The notes under the pieces were generated by a model, which was not told the origin of the DNA, did no database searches, and saw nothing but the letters and a program-made list of their open reading frames with translations. Shown here in pieces: positions 3,700 through 59,820 of a stretch of DNA of 64,000 nt. The position numbers were made by a program, and so were the translations under genes. Origin of the DNA: Escherichia phage VpaE1_ev78; sequence record LR597663; one strand, given 5' to 3'. Each line of letters starts with the position of its first letter. The first letter of the stretch is position 1.

Positions 3700-3725
3700 G
3701 GCTGCTTCGGCGGCCTTTTTTATTT
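3700..3725 (+). terminator. Rho-independent terminator after rIIB-like gene
   Basis: GC stem aggctgc/gcggcct with ttcg loop followed by TTTTTTA. Confidence 0.6.
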
Positions 3726-3751
3726 GTGTTTTGTGCAGAGTACTGTATAAT
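3724..3751 (+). promoter_or_regulatory. Candidate promoter (TATAAT -10, weak -35) containing a TGTGCAG motif
   Basis: TATAAT at 3746-3751; TTGTGT about 16 nt upstream; TGTGCAG also recurs in the 7890-8082 repeats. Confidence 0.35.
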
Positions 3752-3782: not shown

Positions 3783-4331
3783 ATGAAGAAATTGATTCTA
3801 GGTTTGTGCTTAATGTTTACAGCACACTTATCTTATGCAGTTGACTGCCCAGAGCTATCAATTAGCCAAAAAGTAAACATGTTAAAAGCTTACCAGTATG
3901 GTGAGAATAACATGGGTAAAGGTTGGGGTATCACTCTAGCTGCTATAGCCTTACAAGAGTCAGAGTTAGGTCTGAAGGTAGAGAATAAAAAGACACATGA
4001 TTATGGTATTTTCCAGAATCACTTGAAGACTGTTGTAAAGCGTAACAAAATTAGTCCTAATGTGGCTAAAAAGAAACTCTTAAAAGACTTTGACTATGCT
4101 GCAAAGGAAACGCACAAAGAACTTGAGTTTTGGACAAAGGTGCATGGTCAGCCAAAGTCAAAGAAGACTTTACAAAAAGTTTTAGCATCATATAATGCTG
4201 GGTATTCGTACAGAATCCCTAAAGCTAAGAAGTATTCTCAAGATGTCTATAACAACATGAAAGTTATTGCTCAATGTGAATTTGCAACAAACATTTCTAA
4301 GGTAAATCATGAAAAAATTAAGAAAGTCTGA
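3783..4331 (+). CDS. Secreted protein with lytic-transglycosylase (SLT)-like motifs
   Basis: 182 aa; N-terminal signal peptide MKKLILGLCLMFTAHLSYA; AIALQESELG ... DYGIFQ resembles SLT catalytic Glu-Ser and GLMQ-type motifs; GGAG RBS. Confidence 0.45.
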   Translation: MKKLILGLCLMFTAHLSYAVDCPELSISQKVNMLKAYQYGENNMGKGWGITLAAIALQESELGLKVENKKTHDYGIFQNHLKTVVKRNKISPNVAKKKLLKDFDYAAKETHKELEFWTKVHGQPKSKKTLQKVLASYNAGYSYRIPKAKKYSQDVYNNMKVIAQCEFATNISKVNHEKIKKV

Positions 4332-5531: not shown

Positions 5532-5879
5532 ATGACATTTAAAGAGTTCTGTCAAGCTACTTTCATAATTGTTTTCTTAGTTGGTGCAGGTGTCTGGGGA
5601 GGATACTCTTACAGAGACTATCAAGTTGCTGAAACTGAGCTAAACAATCAAAAGCTCATAAGTGTTGCTAAAGATGCTTATCAGGAAGGGTTAGTCACAC
5701 TGAGCACCAATTACAAAAATGATTTGAAAGATGTGCTTGCTAAGAATAAGCATACAAAAGAGGTACTAACATATGAAAAAACTAAGCCAGAGTTTTATAA
5801 TGTTTGTGTTACTGATAACTATGTCAGGGTGTTCAACGAACAAAGTGAGCAGTACATTCAAAAACTCCCAAGTAAGTGA
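5532..5879 (+). CDS. Hypothetical membrane protein
   Basis: 115 aa; AGGAG RBS; hydrophobic N-terminus FIIVFLVGAGVWGG; 3' end overlaps next ORF by about 100 nt in another frame, so one boundary is uncertain. Confidence 0.35.
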   Translation: MTFKEFCQATFIIVFLVGAGVWGGYSYRDYQVAETELNNQKLISVAKDAYQEGLVTLSTNYKNDLKDVLAKNKHTKEVLTYEKTKPEFYNVCVTDNYVRVFNEQSEQYIQKLPSK

Positions 5880-7032: not shown

Positions 7033-7818
7033 ATGGGTATTGTAAAAATCATCAAAGGTGATATCTTTGATGCCTTTGATAAAGGCAAATTTGATATCAT
7101 TGGTCATGGTTGCAACTGTATGAATTTCATGGGTGCAGGTATTGCAGCAACTATTTCTAAGCGTTATCCAAAAGTGTATGATACTGACACAGAAGTTTAC
7201 CTGTTTGCAGGTGGCATTCGTCACAAACCCTGTGAAAATTTACTAGGTAATTTCTCTGTAGCACGTTTAAAACAAGGCCGTATAGCTAACCTTTACACCC
7301 AACTTCATACTGGTAAAGATGCCCGATACAGTGCTTTAGAGTCATCTTTGAAACAGCTTAACAGATACTGTGAAGTTAACCAGTTGAAGAAAGTTGGTCT
7401 ACCTATGATTGGTGCAGGTATCGGTGGGCTTGACCCTCAAGCTGTCACAGTTATCATTAATCAGGTGATGAAGAGTGTAGATGTTTATCTGTATGTCTAT
7501 GAAGCAAAAATGTATAATGAGTTACACTCAGGTTGGAAAAACTACTGTGAACCAGAATACTTTGCAGGTGTAGTTGTGTTCACAGATAACGAAGTTACCC
7601 TCTTCAGACGAAGAAAAGGTAAGATACATCAAAGTAACCCTCCGGTTGAAAAGATGTCTCTGAGTAACGCTCTAGTTACCCACCTGTCGAAGAGCAATCA
7701 CAGGATTGCAGTAACATTTGGCAGTGATGCAGATACTTATATCTATGCAAGAACTGATGAGGATATCGAGACAGTTTTCTCTTCACCAGAAGTTACCTTC
7801 TTAGACGCAAAGAACTAA
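7033..7818 (+). CDS. Macrodomain protein (ADP-ribose binding/processing) with C-terminal extension
   Basis: 261 aa; N-terminal about 160 aa matches macrodomain signatures: IIKGDIFDAF...IIGHGCNCMNFMGAGIAATI and VGLPMIGAGIGGLDP. Confidence 0.6.
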   Translation: MGIVKIIKGDIFDAFDKGKFDIIGHGCNCMNFMGAGIAATISKRYPKVYDTDTEVYLFAGGIRHKPCENLLGNFSVARLKQGRIANLYTQLHTGKDARYSALESSLKQLNRYCEVNQLKKVGLPMIGAGIGGLDPQAVTVIINQVMKSVDVYLYVYEAKMYNELHSGWKNYCEPEYFAGVVVFTDNEVTLFRRRKGKIHQSNPPVEKMSLSNALVTHLSKSNHRIAVTFGSDADTYIYARTDEDIETVFSSPEVTFLDAKN

Positions 7819-7889
7819 GAAACTCTGTAGAATATTCACAATAGACCAAGCCTTTCTTATCTGGTAAATTTTTCAGGTAAGGAGGGCTT

Positions 7890-8082
7890 TTTCATTTCAG
7901 AATTGTGCAGGTAGATTTCTATAGAGAAACCTGTAGAGAAAATATTGAACTCCAAAGAGAAAATTCATTTTCAAACTGTGCAGATAATCTCCAAAGAGCT
8001 TTTTCATTTTCAAAACGTGCAGACCCCGCTCAGGTCGGGCAAGAAAAATCATTTTAGATTTGTGCAGGTAGGTTTTTATAGA
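7890..8082 (+). repeat. Four tandem promoter-like repeats TTTCATTTTCA..TGTGCAGG(N9)TATAGA in a 0.5 kb leader
   Basis: TGTGCAG-type cores at about 7904, 7977, 8016 and 8061, each preceded by TTTCATTT; two copies followed 9 nt later by TATAGA. Confidence 0.5.
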
Positions 8083-8094
8083 GAGCCAGACCAA

Positions 8095-8124
8095 CCCCTC
8101 TCCCCCTCTTACTCCCCCTCTCCC
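8095..8124 (-). repeat. G-tract cluster (four runs of 4-5 G on the minus strand; C-tracts on plus)
   Basis: Plus strand cccctctccccctcttactccccctctcccc; conspicuous in an AT-rich genome. Confidence 0.5.
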
Positions 8125-8247
8125 CAAAAGTCAAGAGAAAAATTTGTAGCGGATTGAAAAATAATTCTTGATTTGTGTTCTGTTTTGTGGTAGTCGTGTG
8201 CGCCCGTTTCATTACAGTTTTGCCAAAAATATTTTTAAAATTTTTTC

Positions 8248-8276
8248 TTGACTCTTTGAACGTGGTTATCTAGTAT
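8248..8276 (+). promoter_or_regulatory. Sigma70-like promoter (TTGACT-17-TAGTAT) driving the small-ORF array
   Basis: Near-consensus -35 and -10 hexamers with 17 nt spacer, immediately upstream of a conserved 5' stem-loop. Confidence 0.6.
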
Positions 8277-8280
8277 TTGC

Positions 8281-8339
8281 ATCAACGGGGAGGGAATGAC
8301 CTTCCCCACTAAATAAAGTCCTAAACTGGAGATTCAAAA
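8281..8339 (+). promoter_or_regulatory. Cassette type A copy 1: 5'UTR stem-loop ggggagggaatgaccttcccc plus conserved RBS
   Basis: Near-identical about 60 nt unit recurs before six genes; GGAGA RBS 8 nt before ATG. Confidence 0.6.
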
Positions 8340-8720
8340 ATGGCATATCGCGCACCTAAATTCATCAATAAAGACAACTTTCGCAACGCACTGGAGAAGT
8401 CACTTGATGAAAATTTTAAAGGTAACATTATCGTTGTTCACGCATTCAATTTTAAGTATGATGTAAACGGGAATAGAATCAACCATTACACGGCAACCAT
8501 GTTAGATGGTACACTATCAAGTGAAAAAGCCGTACTGAATGCACTAGCAGGACGCGGAAAAGTATTAGTAAGATGCGATAAGCGACGTTATCAGGGTGGC
8601 GCATATGGTTATGATGATGCTGTTTATCATCTTGAAAATATGGGCTATAAAGTAGAAAAAGCTGGGGTATCGCAAATCATCGGGAGCGATGGTTATGTAA
8701 CAATCTTCAAAATTAACTGA
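8340..8720 (+). CDS. Hypothetical small early protein
   Basis: 126 aa ORF directly after type A cassette. Confidence 0.5.
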   Translation: MAYRAPKFINKDNFRNALEKSLDENFKGNIIVVHAFNFKYDVNGNRINHYTATMLDGTLSSEKAVLNALAGRGKVLVRCDKRRYQGGAYGYDDAVYHLENMGYKVEKAGVSQIIGSDGYVTIFKIN

Positions 8721-8721
8721 T

Positions 8722-8810
8722 AAAGTACTTTACAAGGGGCTTATAGTTCGATAGAGTAAGCCCCAGATAAAGAGCTTTACCACTCAATCCTAAATTGGAG
8801 AATCTGAAAA
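8722..8810 (+). promoter_or_regulatory. Cassette type B copy 1: TTTACA-17-TAGAGT promoter-like unit overlapping an 8 bp stem-loop, plus conserved RBS
   Basis: agtactttacaaggggctta...taagccccagataaagagctttaccactcaatcctaaattggaga recurs with small changes before six genes. Confidence 0.55.
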
Positions 8811-9105: not shown

Positions 9106-9189
9106 GTACTTTACAGGGGGCTTAAAAGTTGATATCTTAAGCCCCAGATAAAGAGCTTTACCACTTAATCCTAAACTGGAGATTCAAAA
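9106..9189 (+). promoter_or_regulatory. Cassette type B copy 2
   Basis: Same conserved unit (tactttacagggggctta...taagccccagataaagagctttacc...ggaga). Confidence 0.55.
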
Positions 9190-9705: not shown

Positions 9706-9794
9706 GATTTCTTTACACGGGGTTATCAGGCTGGTAGGATAGCCCCAGATAGAGAGATTTATCAAATAAAGCCCTTAAACTAGGAGATTCTAAA
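9706..9794 (+). promoter_or_regulatory. Cassette type B, diverged copy
   Basis: tttctttacacggggtta...tagccccagatagagag...ctaggagattctaaaATG retains layout with sequence drift. Confidence 0.4.
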
Positions 9795-10091: not shown

Positions 10092-10417
10092 TGACTGGTA
10101 TCACTGCAATCATTGCCATTTTCGCGCTATATAAGGCATATAAAGCCTATAATCTAGCAAATAAGGCAATCACACAGCAGGTTAGCAATAACCTTGTAGA
10201 GAGCTTTCTAGGGCGTCTCAGTGATGAGCAAATAAAGCGGCTAGATATGAGCTTCAGATATAAAGCGAAAACCTATCAGATAAGTGACATCTTCAAAGAT
10301 GATTTTCAGTTAGTCGATGATTATAATTCTCTGATAAATGCTTTAAATGTCAGTGACTTAAAAGACTACTACGCTGTAATTGTTCAAGAGTTGAGCAAAC
10401 GAAAACAAAACTGTTGA
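10085..10417 (+). CDS. Hypothetical small membrane protein
   Basis: 110 aa; N-terminal hydrophobic segment LMTGITAIIAIFALY; stop codon lies inside the next promoter -35. Confidence 0.45.
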   Translation: MLMTGITAIIAIFALYKAYKAYNLANKAITQQVSNNLVESFLGRLSDEQIKRLDMSFRYKAKTYQISDIFKDDFQLVDDYNSLINALNVSDLKDYYAVIVQELSKRKQNC

Positions 10418-10963: not shown

Positions 10964-11049
10964 AGTACTTTACAAGGGGCTTGGAAGTTGATATCTTAAG
11001 CCCCAGATAAAGAGCTTTACCACTCAATCCTAAATTGGAGAACTTAAAA
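10964..11049 (+). promoter_or_regulatory. Cassette type B copy 3
   Basis: Conserved unit as copies 1-2. Confidence 0.55.
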
Positions 11050-11758: not shown

Positions 11759-11842
11759 AGTACTTTACAAGGGGCTTATAAGTCTGTAAAGTAAGCCCCA
11801 GATAAAGAGCTTTACACAATCCTTAAACTAGGAGATTAAAAA
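11759..11842 (+). promoter_or_regulatory. Cassette type B copy 4
   Basis: Conserved unit. Confidence 0.55.
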
Positions 11843-12091: not shown

Positions 12092-12178
12092 AGTACTTTA
12101 CAAGGGGCTTATAGTTCGATAAAGTAAGCCCCAGATAAAGAGCTTTACCACTAAATCCTTAAACTAGGAGATTCTAAA
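12092..12178 (+). promoter_or_regulatory. Cassette type B copy 5
   Basis: Conserved unit. Confidence 0.55.
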
Positions 12179-14372: not shown

Positions 14373-15904
14373 AGAATCTTACCAGACCTTAAAAGTAATA
14401 ACTCTATAGCTTACTCTATAACCTCTTATCAAATCAACTTAAATATAAGCCCATAACCCGAGAGGGAAGGGCAACCGTTTAAACGCTCTATAAAGCTCTA
14501 TAACGGCCTTATCAACCTAACTTAAGGGATTGCATTAACTCACCCTAAAAAGCCCTTTATAGAGCTTCCTATAGCCTTAAAAGAATCTTATAAGGGTGTA
14601 AGCTTTATCATCTCGTTAGTTATCTTGTGAACTACTAAAAAGGGCTATGAGATAGGAATCTATCGAATCCTATTGTTAGTGTCTTAAAAGTATGTTATAG
14701 GGGCTTTAAAGTTACTTCAAAGTTGCTTAAAAGGAGCTATAAAGTTACGTAAATGCTAGCCCCCTTAACATTTTCTTAACAATTTCTTAACAATCCCTAC
14801 ATAGTTATGCTTTTAAGGCACTTGTTAGCAACTTGTTAGCCCCTTGTTAAATCTCTGTTAAGACCACGTAAAAGCCTTGTAAGAGTCTTTGACATAGCCT
14901 TAAAAGCTCCTGTAAAGCCCTATAAAGAGGTATCTGTACAGTTGGGGGATAGATACTAGGAAGAGACTTAAAAGAGCTTATAAAGAGCTATAGAGAGCTT
15001 TTAAGAGGTATGTTTAAAGAATCACTAAGAAAGGAAAGGGAACGATAAGAAAAGAAGTAGTGACCATGTTAATAGCTTGTTAAAAAGATTAAACACTTGT
15101 TAGAAACTTGTTAATTATCTTAACAAAATAACTCTTAAAAATTAACTTGTTAGCTCTTGTTAGTCATCTGTTAAGATTCTGTAAAGCCTATTCAGTACTT
15201 GTTAGAAATCTGTTACAGCCTTGTTAGTTCTGTTAAGAATCTGTTAAGACCTTTGAAGAGTTGTTAAGAAGGTGTTAGAACTGTTAAGAGATTGTTAAGG
15301 ATATTTTAAAATTTTGCAAAGTACTTGTAAGGGAGCTGTTAAGGGCTACCAAGCAGATATACATCCTAATCAGATATTTTTGAGTTCCTTCAAAGACCCT
15401 AAAAAATGACTTGACAGTCCTATTTTATAAAAATTTTAAGATTCTGAATAATTACCTATACAGCCTTTTAAAAATACAGGTAATAACAGGCTTATAAGAT
15501 ACCTTGTTAGTACCGTGTTAGACCTTGTGAGATAAGGTCTGTAAAGATATTCCTGTTAAGTTTGTTAAAACAGTCTATATAGAGGCTTAGTAATACCTAG
15601 TGAACACCTATAGAGAGTATCATAGCTAACATAGAGATTAAGAGGTGTATAGGAGCTTCTAAGAAGGTGTAGAGGGATGGTTAAGGTGATTGTATAGGTT
15701 GTTAAGAAGGCTTGTTAGAGGGCTTGTTAGAAGGGTTATACAGAGGGGCTATTAAGACCACTAGATAGTTACTAAGATACTATATAGTACTATATAACTA
15801 TATAGAGAGTAAGATTAAGAAGGTTGTTAAGAAGGATAGATACTTTATTCACATATGATGGTGACCCAGAGGTTGGGACAACCGATAAAATTTTATAAAA
15901 AATA

Positions 15905-15935
15905 TAAATTTCGTAAATTTTACTCAATAAAAAGC
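15905..15935 (-). terminator. Rho-independent terminator for the minus-strand unit
   Basis: Minus-strand reading agcctcc-ttaatt-gggggct followed by TTTTTATT. Confidence 0.5.
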
Positions 15936-15963
15936 CCCCAATTAAGGAGGCTCTTAAGATATT

Positions 15964-16557
15964 TTAAATCAGTGTTTCCAGAACTGTTTTTAGGGATGAC
16001 TTAGTTGTCTGATAAAAATGAGTGAATCCGTTGTTATTATCGAATATCTGCATCATGATATCATCTCCCTTGATTGGATACACTCGGATATCATAGTGAA
16101 ACCCATTAAAGACAGCAGAACCATTACAGAACACACTAAAATCATCCACTGAGATGTACTCTTCATGACCTGTGATTTTTATACAGATACCCTTACTTGG
16201 TCTCTTAGGATTGATGTCTTCCATAATAGACATACTCTGTCCACCAAGAGATACCATCGTGACCACTTTACGGTTCTTCTGTTTAAAGTACATCTTAACT
16301 TTCTGCAAAGTGTCTTCATAGAACGGATAAGACCTTTCTACAAAGATTCCTTCAAGTGGCTCTTTACCATTTTCAACTTCTCGGTTATGCCGTACTGCAA
16401 AGATAATTTGTTCGAACCAGTCAAGATTTTCTTCGGAGAGTGCTTCCCGAATATCACTCCAATCAAGGACTAGATAGTTACCTTCAACTTCTTTTAAGTT
16501 ATCTTTTTCCATAGCTATCACACCATTATCGTAAAACTTGGTAAGCTGGAACCGCAA
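15964..16557 (-). CDS. Hypothetical protein
   Basis: 197 aa ORF, last gene of minus-strand operon. Confidence 0.45.
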   Translation of the reverse strand: MRFQLTKFYDNGVIAMEKDNLKEVEGNYLVLDWSDIREALSEENLDWFEQIIFAVRHNREVENGKEPLEGIFVERSYPFYEDTLQKVKMYFKQKNRKVVTMVSLGGQSMSIMEDINPKRPSKGICIKITGHEEYISVDDFSVFCNGSAVFNGFHYDIRVYPIKGDDIMMQIFDNNNGFTHFYQTTKSSLKTVLETLI

Positions 16558-30178: not shown

Positions 30179-30736
30179 ATGAGATATTTGAAGTATGCTT
30201 CATGGATTTTCTTAGCTTTGTTAGAACCATTTGCAGCAATCTTAGCAGTTATCTTAGCACCTTTTGTAGTTCCATTCTACAGTGAGAAGAAAGGACACTT
30301 ACCTTTCGGGTTCAGATGGATGGAGACATATGACAACCCAATTGATGGTGATGAAGGTCACGTTAAAAGATGGGCTAATATTAGATGGATTGGTAAACTA
30401 GGTGTCTACATGCAAAGAGTCGGATGGCTCTGGAGAAACAAAGCTTATAACTTCTCTTACCATGTGTTAGGAAGAGATGTAAAAGATGTTACTAAGTGGA
30501 AAGGTAATATCAACGTAAGTTCTAACCCTGAAGATAATCAGACAGGTTATCTCCTAATGTGGAACAGTAATGCTTGGGGATTATTCGCTTTTACCCCATC
30601 AATTAAAATCTTTGGTAAACAGTTTTACTGGAGAATTTATATTGGGTGGAAGCTAAAAAGTGTTGTCCCAGAAGAAAGAGCATTCTCAAGGGAAAGAGTT
30701 ATGTTGGCATTCTTTATTCATCCACTAAGAAAGTAA
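30179..30736 (+). CDS. Hypothetical membrane protein embedded in tRNA array
   Basis: 185 aa; AAGAGG RBS; hydrophobic N-terminus WIFLALLEPFAAILAVILAPFVVPF; Trp-rich. Confidence 0.5.
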   Translation: MRYLKYASWIFLALLEPFAAILAVILAPFVVPFYSEKKGHLPFGFRWMETYDNPIDGDEGHVKRWANIRWIGKLGVYMQRVGWLWRNKAYNFSYHVLGRDVKDVTKWKGNINVSSNPEDNQTGYLLMWNSNAWGLFAFTPSIKIFGKQFYWRIYIGWKLKSVVPEERAFSRERVMLAFFIHPLRK

Positions 30737-30744
30737 AGATTTAA

Positions 30745-30820
30745 AGGGGATTAGTTTACAAGGTTAAAACCTCGGTCTTTGAAATCGAAGAAGTTGGTTC
30801 AATTCCAACATCCCCCGCCA
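30745..30820 (+). tRNA. tRNA-Gln (TTG)
   Basis: Acceptor aggggat/atccccc with 1-72 mismatch, anticodon loop ctTTGaa, T-arm gttgg-ttcaatt-ccaac, CCA encoded. Confidence 0.5.
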
Positions 30821-30822
30821 AT

Positions 30823-30901
30823 GCTCCATTACTCCAATTGGCAGAGAGGCCAGACTTAAAATCTGTGTTATGTATCGGTTCGAATCCGATATGGAGTACC
30901 A
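30823..30901 (+). tRNA. tRNA with anticodon TAA (Leu-type), atypical fold
   Basis: Acceptor gctccat/atggagt, 4 bp anticodon stem with loop ctTAAaa, T-arm atcgg-ttcgaat-ccgat, CCA encoded; 8 nt variable region. Confidence 0.4.
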
Positions 30902-30905
30902 AATT

Positions 30906-30981
30906 TAGCGGTATAGCATAACTGGCAATGCAGCAGCCTCTGAAGCTGTCCTATTAAGGTTCAAATCCTTATGCCGCTGCC
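30906..30981 (+). tRNA. tRNA-Gln (CTG)
   Basis: Acceptor agcggta/tgccgct, anticodon stem gcagc/gctgt with loop ctCTGaa, T-loop ttcaaat, CCA encoded. Confidence 0.5.
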
Positions 30982-58658: not shown

Positions 58659-58988
58659 TTAATCTGCCAGCCTTAAATTAAAATTAACACCAAATTTTTC
58701 GCATACTTCCAACATATACTCAAGGGAGACATTACCAGTGAGGTGGATTATGTTGGATACGCGAGCCTGAGAGATACCACAAATTTTAGCAACTTGCTCT
58801 TGAGAAAGACCTCTGGATTTAATCTCTCTCTTAAAACGATGTGCAACGAAATCTCTCATTTCGTCTACATCCATTGGACAAATATAACTCTCCATTTCAG
58901 CCTCTCTGTCAGCCTCCCAATCATCTTGTGGAGCATAAGGGTCAAAAACCTCATTCATCTTTCTTCTTCCGTTTTCGTGAAGTGTCAA
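58659..58988 (-). CDS. Helix-turn-helix DNA-binding protein (XRE-like)
   Basis: 109 aa; C-terminal LSQEQVAKICGISQARVSNIIHLTGNVSLEYMLEVCEKFGV resembles an XRE-family HTH. Confidence 0.5.
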   Translation of the reverse strand: MTLHENGRRKMNEVFDPYAPQDDWEADREAEMESYICPMDVDEMRDFVAHRFKREIKSRGLSQEQVAKICGISQARVSNIIHLTGNVSLEYMLEVCEKFGVNFNLRLAD

Positions 58989-59164: not shown

Positions 59165-59548
59165 TCAAATACCTGTGCAGCTTCTGTTTTCTAAGAAATA
59201 CTCAACACCATACATAGCTTTTTGCATCAAATCTTCTTTAAACTGGATACGATGATTGAGCATAGCCTGTACATCAATATCATCAGGGTGCTTCTCTTTA
59301 ATATTTGCAGATTGCAGGAAATACTCTGCAAGAACACGATACTGATAGTCAGTTACCTTATCAGTCATCTCTGTTAAAGACTCTTCAGAGATTGGTTTAA
59401 GTAGCTCACCATTAGCCAGAGCAACACCTTTAACAATCTGGCAAGTGTCTTCTGGAACTCCTGATAAATCCACATTTGGAAGTTCTGTTGCATTGACTGG
59501 TAAATTCATTGACATAACCATTGCAGCAGCTAATAAAATCTTTTTCAT
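59165..59548 (-). CDS. Secreted protein (signal peptide)
   Basis: 127 aa; N-terminal MKKILLAAAMVMSMNLPVNA. Confidence 0.45.
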   Translation of the reverse strand: MKKILLAAAMVMSMNLPVNATELPNVDLSGVPEDTCQIVKGVALANGELLKPISEESLTEMTDKVTDYQYRVLAEYFLQSANIKEKHPDDIDVQAMLNHRIQFKEDLMQKAMYGVEYFLENRSCTGI

Positions 59549-59820
59549 AATGACCTCAAAGTTATATTAAATTTTGTATTACATTGAGTATAAAAATAAG
59601 CTATAACACCTGACTTGTCAACAGATTTTATAGCTTATTTGGCAGATTTTTTATAAGGCTACTGCCATCCTTCCATACCAGACCACACCATGCCAAACCA
59701 GACTTCACATCACCTTACCGTGCAATACATTACTTAAAAACCCTCTTAAAAGACTCTTAAGTTATGCTGGTGAGTACCTGTTGGTTTATGCTGCTCAGTA
59801 TACTCACCAAATTTTCTATG

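Follow-up and report, generated by a model that had tools for sequence, protein, structure and literature searches.

The 521-bp region between a macro-domain gene and the first of the small early genes of Escherichia phage VpaE1_ev78 (positions 7819–8339 of a 64,000-nucleotide stretch of sequence record LR597663, referred to here as the window) carries an array of four direct repeats which have been selected as DNA sites across the phage subfamily Ounavirinae, and which are not coding sequence, a conserved RNA fold, a genome end or promoters in themselves. Of the non-coding elements found around the early region, the array is the one with the strongest conservation. Our preferred but tentative reading, to which we assign a probability of about 0.4, is that the repeats are putative sites for a sequence-specific DNA-binding protein that would control transcription at the boundary between two early units and at the promoter after rIIB; the binding of a protein, its identity and the direction of regulation are what we infer. 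The Felix O1-type phages, to which this phage belongs, are classical Salmonella typing phages with a wide use in biocontrol, and the array offers a deeply conserved handle on two questions concerning them: the timing of transcription and the location of the replication origin.

The window is part of a Felixounavirus genome of ~88 kb (the 64-kb window and a remaining 24.8 kb) and is 99.9% identical to Escherichia phage vB_EcoM_ULIM3 over the 2.2 kb around the array, while the 521-bp region is 100% identical to that of Salmonella phage UAB_Phi87. Between 251 and 291 phage records match, nearly all of which are of the Felix O1 type (Ounavirinae).

The four repeats

The repeats, designated R1–R4, all lie in one orientation, start at 7887, 7960, 7999 and 8044 (start-to-start distances of 73, 39 and 45 bp) and follow the pattern W5-TCATTTY-N6-GTGCAGR, the conserved blocks within each unit being ~12 bp apart. 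The units were scored in bits with a 27-position matrix built from the copies in relatives.

7887–7913, plus strand: repeat R1, CTTTTTCATTTCAGAATTGTGCAGGTA; 37.5 bits; 89–93% identity to Mooglevirus and Suspvirus
7892–7910, plus strand: core of R1, TCATTTCAGAATTGTGCAG
7960–7986, plus strand: repeat R2, AAAATTCATTTTCAAACTGTGCAGATA; 35.0 bits; 79% identity between genera
7965–7983, plus strand: core of R2, TCATTTTCAAACTGTGCAG
7999–8025, plus strand: repeat R3, CTTTTTCATTTTCAAAACGTGCAGACC; 33.2 bits; 78–81% identity between genera
8004–8022, plus strand: core of R3, TCATTTTCAAAACGTGCAG
8044–8070, plus strand: repeat R4, AAAAATCATTTTAGATTTGTGCAGGTA; 33.5 bits; 85–89% identity between genera
8049–8067, plus strand: core of R4, TCATTTTAGATTTGTGCAG

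The core TCATTTYnnAnnnGTGCAG has four exact matches, against 0.3 expected by chance. A first-pass annotation of this DNA had described four repeats with a TGTGCAG core; the four direct repeats are real, but the exact heptamer is found in three of the four, R3 reading CGTGCAG. The same annotation had noted a TATAGA 9 nt after two of the repeats, which is indeed the case for R1 (7920–7925) and R4 (8077–8082), and had proposed a search for further TGTGCAG(N9)TATAGA combinations, which revealed no enrichment elsewhere in the window (11 matches with at most two mismatches, against 6.4 expected). When the matrix was used for the scan, the only credible copy besides R1–R4 (33–37 bits) was found at 3715, with 17.7 bits; the runners-up reached 7 in the window and 15.7 in the 24.8 kb outside it.

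The element CTCCAAAGAG stands directly 5′ of R2 (7950–7959) and of R3 (7989–7998), and the one upstream of R2 is 93–100% identical between genera. R4 aligns with unit 3 of the array of the Erwinia phages. A degenerate half-copy, TTTCATTACAGTTTTG, which has no GTGCA, is present at 8207–8222 between the two rightward promoters described below, and is partially conserved in Mooglevirus and Suspvirus.

Conservation of the array

The array follows the macro gene in all four genera of the Ounavirinae, namely Felixounavirus, Mooglevirus (phage Michonne), Suspvirus (SUSP1) and Kolesnikvirus (Erwinia and Hafnia phages), and the order of macro gene, terminator, four repeats, C-rich tract and promoters is common to all of them. 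When the window is compared with Mooglevirus and Suspvirus, the repeat units display 78–93% identity and the spacers 33–47%, and the four-fold degenerate sites of the adjacent macro gene, which serve as a silent-site yardstick, are 67–68% identical; the units are therefore under purifying selection, while the spacers are not. Apart from the repeats, nothing in the intergenic region of Kolesnikvirus can still be aligned. The start-to-start spacing is 75/41/45 in Mooglevirus and Suspvirus, 37/37/39 in Kolesnikvirus and 36/148/38 in L050, a distant 88-kb metagenomic phage whose proteins are 30–44% identical and which has no detectable nucleotide similarity. In this phage, too, a macro gene precedes the array (AAAWTCATTTTAAAAACGTGCATAGG; two pairs and a degenerate copy), after which comes a C-rich stretch, and between the array and the next promoter lie ~170 bp of AT-rich DNA (5600–5770, reverse complement) with more than ten TTAACA/TTAACC repeats. 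Three copies only are present in phiWec177, from which R2 has been deleted, and in L040-type contigs. The genes 3′ of the array vary between lineages while the array itself persists.

Pattern scans of IMG/VR, of the JGI/ENA metagenomes and of the GTDB genomes (one per bacterial species) gave numerous matches but located the array on Ounavirinae-type contigs only, and neither 5,426 E. coli genomes nor 72,556 plasmids contained a similar sequence. The remaining pattern-scan matches, including L042, fell below matrix scoring and are considered to be chance matches in unrelated repeats. The L042/L110 match (3880–3990, reverse complement) lies on an unrelated 10-kb contig and consists of two 47-bp direct repeats with the core AATCATTTTAACATAGTGCAGTG just 5′ of a promoter; these repeats obtained no score from the matrix and were judged to resemble the motif by chance.

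The same comparison bears on the idea that the repeats are decaying, functionless relics of tandem duplications of a terminator-plus-promoter cassette. Such an origin would be in keeping with the terminators adjoining both R1 and the solitary copy at 3715, with the mini-hairpin found 5′ of R2 and R3 (followed at R3 by a T-run) and with the abundance of duplicated promoter–hairpin cassettes in the genome, also noted in the Felix O1 genome paper. Relics, however, would not be expected to be conserved well above the level of silent sites while their spacers drop to 33–47% identity, nor to survive in L050, a lineage with no other nucleotide similarity, and we regard this explanation as highly improbable.

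The solitary copy at 3715

3715–3741, plus strand: fifth copy of the motif, CTTTTTTATTTGTGTTTTGTGCAGAGT (element 3715–3751); 17.7 bits

The fifth copy adjoins the rIIB terminator (3700–3715) and lies between the −35 box and a perfect TATAAT −10 box (3746–3751) of the promoter of the gene at 3783. The first-pass annotation had drawn attention to a TGTGCAG preceding a TATAAT at 3731–3751, and this proved to be a true member of the motif, conserved in relatives and located inside a strong promoter. It is found in Felixounavirus, Mooglevirus and Suspvirus with scores of 18–28 bits (24–28 bits in the last two genera, in which the surrounding promoter reads TTGAAA-16-TATAAT). TGTGCAG and TTTATTTG are near-invariant across lineages while the surrounding bases vary, the exception being L055, which has TGTGTAG. 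No 3715-type copy was found in Kolesnikvirus. Since the motif is upstream of the transcription start at this locus, it can act there only as DNA, and we consider this copy to be the best single clue that the motif may be a protein-binding site involved in transcription.

Coding, packaging and promoter functions

The open reading frames across the region, already suspected to be spurious in the first-pass annotation, are not coding: substitutions fall evenly on the codon positions (14/16/14, 11/10/12 and 17/16/18) with no third-position bias, the frames called by annotators differ between genera and are not conserved, and wV8 has a 2-nt indel inside them. A known RNA family, a clustered regularly interspaced short palindromic repeat (CRISPR) array and a conserved RNA fold were also rejected, as a search of Rfam gave no match near the threshold of any family and the consensus fold comprised the terminator only, with an unfavourable covariation term on both strands.

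A genome terminus or packaging site was likewise discarded. The first 542 bp of the UAB_Phi87 record are identical to its last 542 bp and map to 30404–30945 of the window, in the tRNA region; the terminal repeats of this phage were determined experimentally, with a direct terminal repeat of 608 bp (UAB_Phi87 genome paper). The physical ends of this phage type are thus located there, and an end near 8 kb would be at odds with the SpeI sites.

By eye, the motif was also compared with the consensus sites of DnaA, IHF, CRP, Fis, Fur, OmpR, Mar/Sox, sigma-54 and Ter, and no convincing match was seen; these comparisons are not counted as tests.

The first-pass annotation had offered two alternatives for the repeats, a repeated promoter or a regulator-binding element that does not conform to the sigma-70 consensus. 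The latter agrees with the selection of the units, but not the spacers, as DNA, and with the outcome of a plus-strand scan for sigma-70 promoters (−35 and −10 hexamers 16–18 bp apart, the −10 having A at position 2 and T at position 6), in which none of R1–R4 was reported. The former was not supported. In the best register only R1 has both promoter halves, TTTTCA-17-TAGATT, with 8 of 12 matches; TATAGA is confined to R1 and R4, nothing −10-like stands at the 9-nt distance from R2 and R3, and the box, which never has T at position 6, drifts to TGTAGA, TATGGA or TGTAGG in close relatives, with loss of the essential A at position 2 in some, and is absent from sequences carrying the alternative tract allele described below (allele B).

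A more elaborate version of the promoter idea would make each repeat a non-canonical promoter, composed of a GTGCAG box and a TATAGA 9 nt further on, that is recognized by a modified host polymerase in the style of the T4 middle promoters. It can draw on the TATAGA of R1 and R4, on the TATAAT found 7 nt after GTGCAG at the solitary copy and on the alternative register of R1, whose −10 is TAGAGT in most relatives and, in Michonne, a scan-positive TATTAT. On the other hand, R2 and R3 are devoid of a −10-like element, the TATAGA is not conserved, the Kolesnikvirus units have no plus-strand −10, and no other intergenic region contains the motif; being restricted to two loci, it does not constitute a genome-wide promoter class. 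The T4 middle-type arrangement, an activator box at a constant distance from a TAnnnT −10 in every copy, also failed as a test, since box and −10 occur together in only two of the four array copies and at 9 nt, as opposed to 7 nt at 3715. Felix O1 apparently encodes no T4-like RNA-polymerase-modifying proteins (Felix O1 genome paper), no search for MotA and AsiA homologues having been made here. We consider such promoters very improbable.

The G-run tract and the flanking promoter-like sites

Along the DNA, the macro-gene terminator is followed by R1–R4, the C/G-run tract, a back-to-back pair of promoter-like sites and the promoter of the downstream gene.

7848–7889, plus strand: intrinsic terminator hairpin of the macro-domain gene; 17-pair stem, then a T-run
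8095–8125, minus strand: G-run tract GGGG AGA GGGGG AGTAAGA GGGGG AGA GGGG (C-tract on the plus strand)
8106–8134, minus strand: leftward promoter-like site TTGACT (8134–8129)-17-TAAGAG (8111–8106), read from the sequence and pointing into the array
8168–8196, plus strand: rightward promoter-like site TTGATT-17-TAGTCG
8248–8276, plus strand: sigma-70-type promoter TTGACT-17-TAGTAT of the gene at 8340

The terminator is present 5′ of the array in all of the genera compared, a rho-independent terminator is annotated at the matching position in wV8, and its T-run (7890–7894) doubles as the 5′ A/T part of R1.

The first-pass annotation had described a pattern prone to form a G-quadruplex (G4) on the minus strand. 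The four G-runs, of 4, 5, 5 and 4 residues, were confirmed: no other stretch of the 64 kb qualifies as a canonical G4 motif (at least three G in each of four runs, with loops of 1–7 nt), of which 0.04 are expected, and the G4Hunter score of the tract, −2.36, is the most extreme in the window, the next being −1.44. ViennaRNA with RNA parameters also predicts a quadruplex at the tract, a result that is indicative only. The pattern is not fixed, however. Of the 33 distinct sequences compared from Felixounavirus, Mooglevirus and Suspvirus, 20 carry the C-rich allele (with a canonical minus-strand G4 in 18 of these) and 13 carry allele B, GGTAGGTGGGTGCAGGTGGGGATGTCGCCATTTCTCACAAGGCTACCACATC, which is of exactly equal length but has its G-runs on the plus strand and can form two tetrads at most. 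The existence of two alleles was noted when positions 8072–8125 of the window (R4 to the leftward −35) were compared with L010–L016, L022–L024, L028–L031 and L033. An absolute G4Hunter value of at least 1.5, reached by 0.045% of the 25-nt windows in the stretch analysed here, is nevertheless attained beside the array throughout the lineages examined (Michonne, −2.16; SUSP1, −1.92; Tian, −1.60; allele B, +1.52). The richness in G-runs beside the array thus appears to be kept while the sequence and the strand are not, which argues against a strand-specific RNA role; the role of the tract may be DNA-structural or merely permissive.

Both alleles are present among the contigs of a single metagenome (3300045988), and L102 has one additional CTCTTACTCCCCC unit in the tract. 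The metagenome contigs L018 (L018/L039) and L020 (L020/L046) end exactly inside the C-tract (…CTCTTACTCC), L020 continuing into Nextera adapter sequence past it, and L066/L085, which come from another assembly, end ~80–100 nt past R4 as inferred from the locus lengths. Instead of marking a physical end of the DNA, these contig ends are probably assembly breaks, to which either the poor coverage of G/C-runs or the co-occurrence of the two alleles gave rise.

The leftward and rightward sites stand back to back with 33 bp between their −35 boxes, and the block 8127–8200 is 78–82% identical between genera and near-invariant within the genus. The leftward site fails the promoter-scan criteria in the window, as position 6 of its −10 is not T, but its 17-nt geometry is kept in both tract alleles (with the −10 reading TAAGAG, TAATAG or TAGCCT) and in Mooglevirus and Suspvirus, and Kolesnikvirus has a strong leftward counterpart, TTGACC-18-TATACT. 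The promoter at 8248–8276 is followed by a leader hairpin (8287–8307) and a ribosome-binding site, GGAG (8328–8331). The gene at 8340 therefore has its own promoter and probably a 5′ untranslated region of ~60 nt, so that the term 0.5-kb leader, used for the whole region in the first-pass annotation, is only partly apt. The promoter, annotated as DR_6 in wV8, belongs to a promoter-plus-leader family that recurs at 10414 and 11463, and similarity between relatives breaks off at ~8284–8290.

The promoter-like site pointing into the array raises the possibility that the element acts as RNA, either as a leftward non-coding transcript of ~250 nt which starts from 8134–8106 and contains four antisense repeats, serving as a protein-binding or sponge RNA, or as a rightward read-through transcript, with the C-tract reinforcing the terminator by loading Rho. 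The conservation of the leftward site and its strength in Kolesnikvirus would suit the first version, and the C-tract, with ~35 nt free of G on the plus strand, is typical of a Rho loading site. The leftward −10 of the window is nonetheless poor (TAAGAG) and no clear terminator was recognized for the leftward transcript; the lack of conserved secondary structure, of favourable covariation on either strand and of an Rfam family, the reversed strand asymmetry of allele B and the 3715 copy, which precedes the transcription start of its promoter and is therefore DNA-only, further count against an RNA function, which we consider improbable.

A proposed role in transcriptional control

A protein acting at these sites would recognize an asymmetric sequence made up of an A/T5 tract, TCATTTY, approximately six variable bases and GTGCAGR, always in the same orientation, and the distance of ~12 bp between the two blocks would suit a single protein touching two successive major grooves. 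The putative binder, which is probably phage-encoded, would occupy the non-coding segment that separates the terminator of the operon extending from rIIA to the macro-domain gene from the promoters heading the small-gene cluster. At 3715, its binding would occlude the promoter after rIIB; binding to the array would either block the back-to-back pair at 8106–8196 or modulate it, and would also keep transcription from crossing between the two units; the G-run tract would be a looser component of the array. The location of the array beside conserved divergent promoter-like sites is compatible with such a role. The temporal regulation of transcription in Felix O1 is not known (Felix O1 genome paper), which makes an as yet unassigned regulator plausible.

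Several observations weigh against protein-mediated control of transcription. No DNA-binding domains were found by Pfam in the products of the flanking genes. The sole annotated helix-turn-helix (HTH) regulator, a 99-residue Cro/C1-type protein encoded on the minus strand at 58662–58958 (Pfam HTH_3, E = 5e-10) within a cluster of replication and nucleotide-metabolism genes, is conserved in Felixounavirus, Mooglevirus and Suspvirus, the same distribution as that of the solitary 3715 copy; nevertheless, no homologue was detected by tblastn in the array-bearing Erwinia phages, so that it lacks support as the binder. HTH_3 proteins also usually bind palindromes, which the array sites are not. The C-terminal extension of the macro protein was rejected as well, since it is absent from the distant lineage L050, which still carries the array. 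Furthermore, a simple repressor would not be expected to bind where these sites lie, 90–280 bp upstream of the rightward promoters, and spacings of 37–75 bp place them on differing faces of the helix. Finally, the constancy of the array while the downstream genes change would suit an autonomous element, such as an origin of replication, at least as well.

A possible replication origin

The main competing explanation, which we hold to be possible but doubtful, is that the array is a replication origin, with the repeats as iterons for an initiator, the flanking promoters providing transcriptional activation or primer RNA, and the G-run tract favouring strand opening or formation of an R-loop; with the C-rich allele, the leftward RNA would start with two of the four G-runs. 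Non-coding repeats commonly mark the origins of phages and satellites (PMC7145576), and the four to five direct repeats in one orientation within a non-coding region of ~500 bp, the conservation of their number and position across the subfamily and the adjoining promoter-like sites on both strands would all be consistent with such a function, as would the G4Hunter values of at least 1.5 (absolute) beside the array in all of the lineages examined, the 170-bp AT-rich stretch of TTAACA repeats that follows the array in L050 and the persistence of the array in front of changing genes. A family-A DNA polymerase and a primase-helicase are encoded by the phage, whose replisome is T7-like, and the genome papers searched (Felix O1, wV8 and UAB_Phi87) make no mention of an origin.

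The DNA adjoining the array is not exceptionally unstable, as 442 of the 63,960 windows of 40 bp are less stable, and the least stable DNA lies elsewhere, at 15.0–16.0 kb and at 59.5 kb. GC skew has no inflection at 8 kb, although in this genome it simply follows transcription and is uninformative. The irregular spacing (73, 39 and 45) differs from the regular two-turn spacing of classical iterons, an initiator gene is not recognizable, the leftward RNA of allele B would be C-rich, so that the R-loop idea fails for 13 of the 33 sequences, and the site inside the promoter after rIIB would be unexplained unless the initiator were also a repressor. The complete version of this model, in which array and tract together form the Felix O1-type origin, an initiator occupying the four units while the promoters and the G4- or R-loop-prone tract open the DNA, is in our judgement unlikely; if an origin is indeed located here, the two tract alleles would be natural variants of origin opening.

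The window is at its most AT-rich at 15045–15984 and 59532–59631, where 40-bp segments contain as much as 93% AT, and a change of sign in the GC skew (~13–17 kb) coincides with the first of these clusters. Both are candidates for divergent promoters or for an unwinding element.

Comparison with known systems

The array was compared with iteron arrays such as the lambda origin with its four O-protein sites, the iterons of RepA, pi and TrfA, and the RepA_N iterons of PLE, a satellite of ICP1 (PMC7145576). It shares with them several direct repeats of ~20 bp in one orientation in non-coding DNA near promoters, with three to five copies kept in relatives. It differs from them in its irregular spacing (37–75 bp, whereas iterons are spaced by about two helical turns), in having no outstanding AT-rich unwinding element and no recognizable initiator gene, and in the placement of one copy inside an unrelated promoter.

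In phage phi29, the sites of protein p4 lie between the divergent early promoters A2b/A2c and the late promoter A3 and are inverted repeats that overlap the promoters. The array resembles this control region in being a short intergenic segment with divergent promoters and several sites, which in phi29 serve a small class-switching regulator; its sites, however, are asymmetric, tandem and mostly upstream of the promoters. The middle promoters of T4 combine a MotA box at −30 with a −10 element, and R1, R4 and the 3715 copy comparably have a box outside the sigma-70 consensus followed, 7–9 nt further on, by a TATA-like hexamer, but the hexamer is not conserved at R1 and R4 and is absent at R2 and R3, and the motif is not spread over many genes.

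G-rich elements that form R-loops or G4 structures are found at origins such as those of ColE1 (RNA II), T4 (oriF) and mitochondria (CSB II). In the C-rich allele the G-clusters are similarly located at and just 3′ of a promoter-like site and occupy the strand that is non-template when transcription runs leftward, while in allele B the strand is reversed, the tract of Kolesnikvirus lies ~150 bp from the promoter, and G4 or R-loop formation is here hypothetical. Small early genes of T4-type phages are reportedly flanked by promoter–stem-loop cassettes (PeSLs), an account attributed to Arbiol et al. in 2010. The neighbouring small genes at 8729, 9110, 9712, 10969, 11764 and 12097 do carry a cassette of promoter and hairpin, and the similarity between relatives breaks at the 8248 promoter, but the four-repeat array differs from PeSLs in sequence, has no hairpin and does not flank genes.

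The array is a new sequence family of a familiar kind, that of repeat arrays in phage control or origin regions. It is not described in the genome papers of Felix O1, wV8 and UAB_Phi87, and a literature search turned up no transcriptome study of a Felix O1-type phage. The motif provides a defined DNA bait of ~25 bp, available in five copies, with which a regulator or an initiator could be fished out, and the array pinpoints where to look in work on transcript starts and replication profiles. The two alleles of the tract, in turn, amount to an experiment made by nature, one that bears on the importance of G4-prone sequence for a phage control region.

Neighbouring genes

The region is flanked by the gene of a macro-domain 'phosphatase' (7033–7818) and by a gene of unknown function that encodes 126 residues (8340–8720), the counterparts of genes 12 and 14 of wV8. 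The assignment of the upstream gene as a macrodomain gene in the first-pass annotation is borne out by a match to Pfam Macro, together with one to PHROG 335; no domain other than Macro was found in the Pfam scan of the neighbouring genes. Further downstream, at 8729–8790, 9110–9170, 9712–9770, 10969–11030, 11764–11825 and 12097–12160, each of the small genes is preceded by a repeated cassette that consists of TTTACA, a GGGGCTT…AAGCCCC hairpin across the spacer and the −10, and then AGATAAAGAGCTTTA; the Felix O1 genome paper describes these cassettes as 57-bp repeats.

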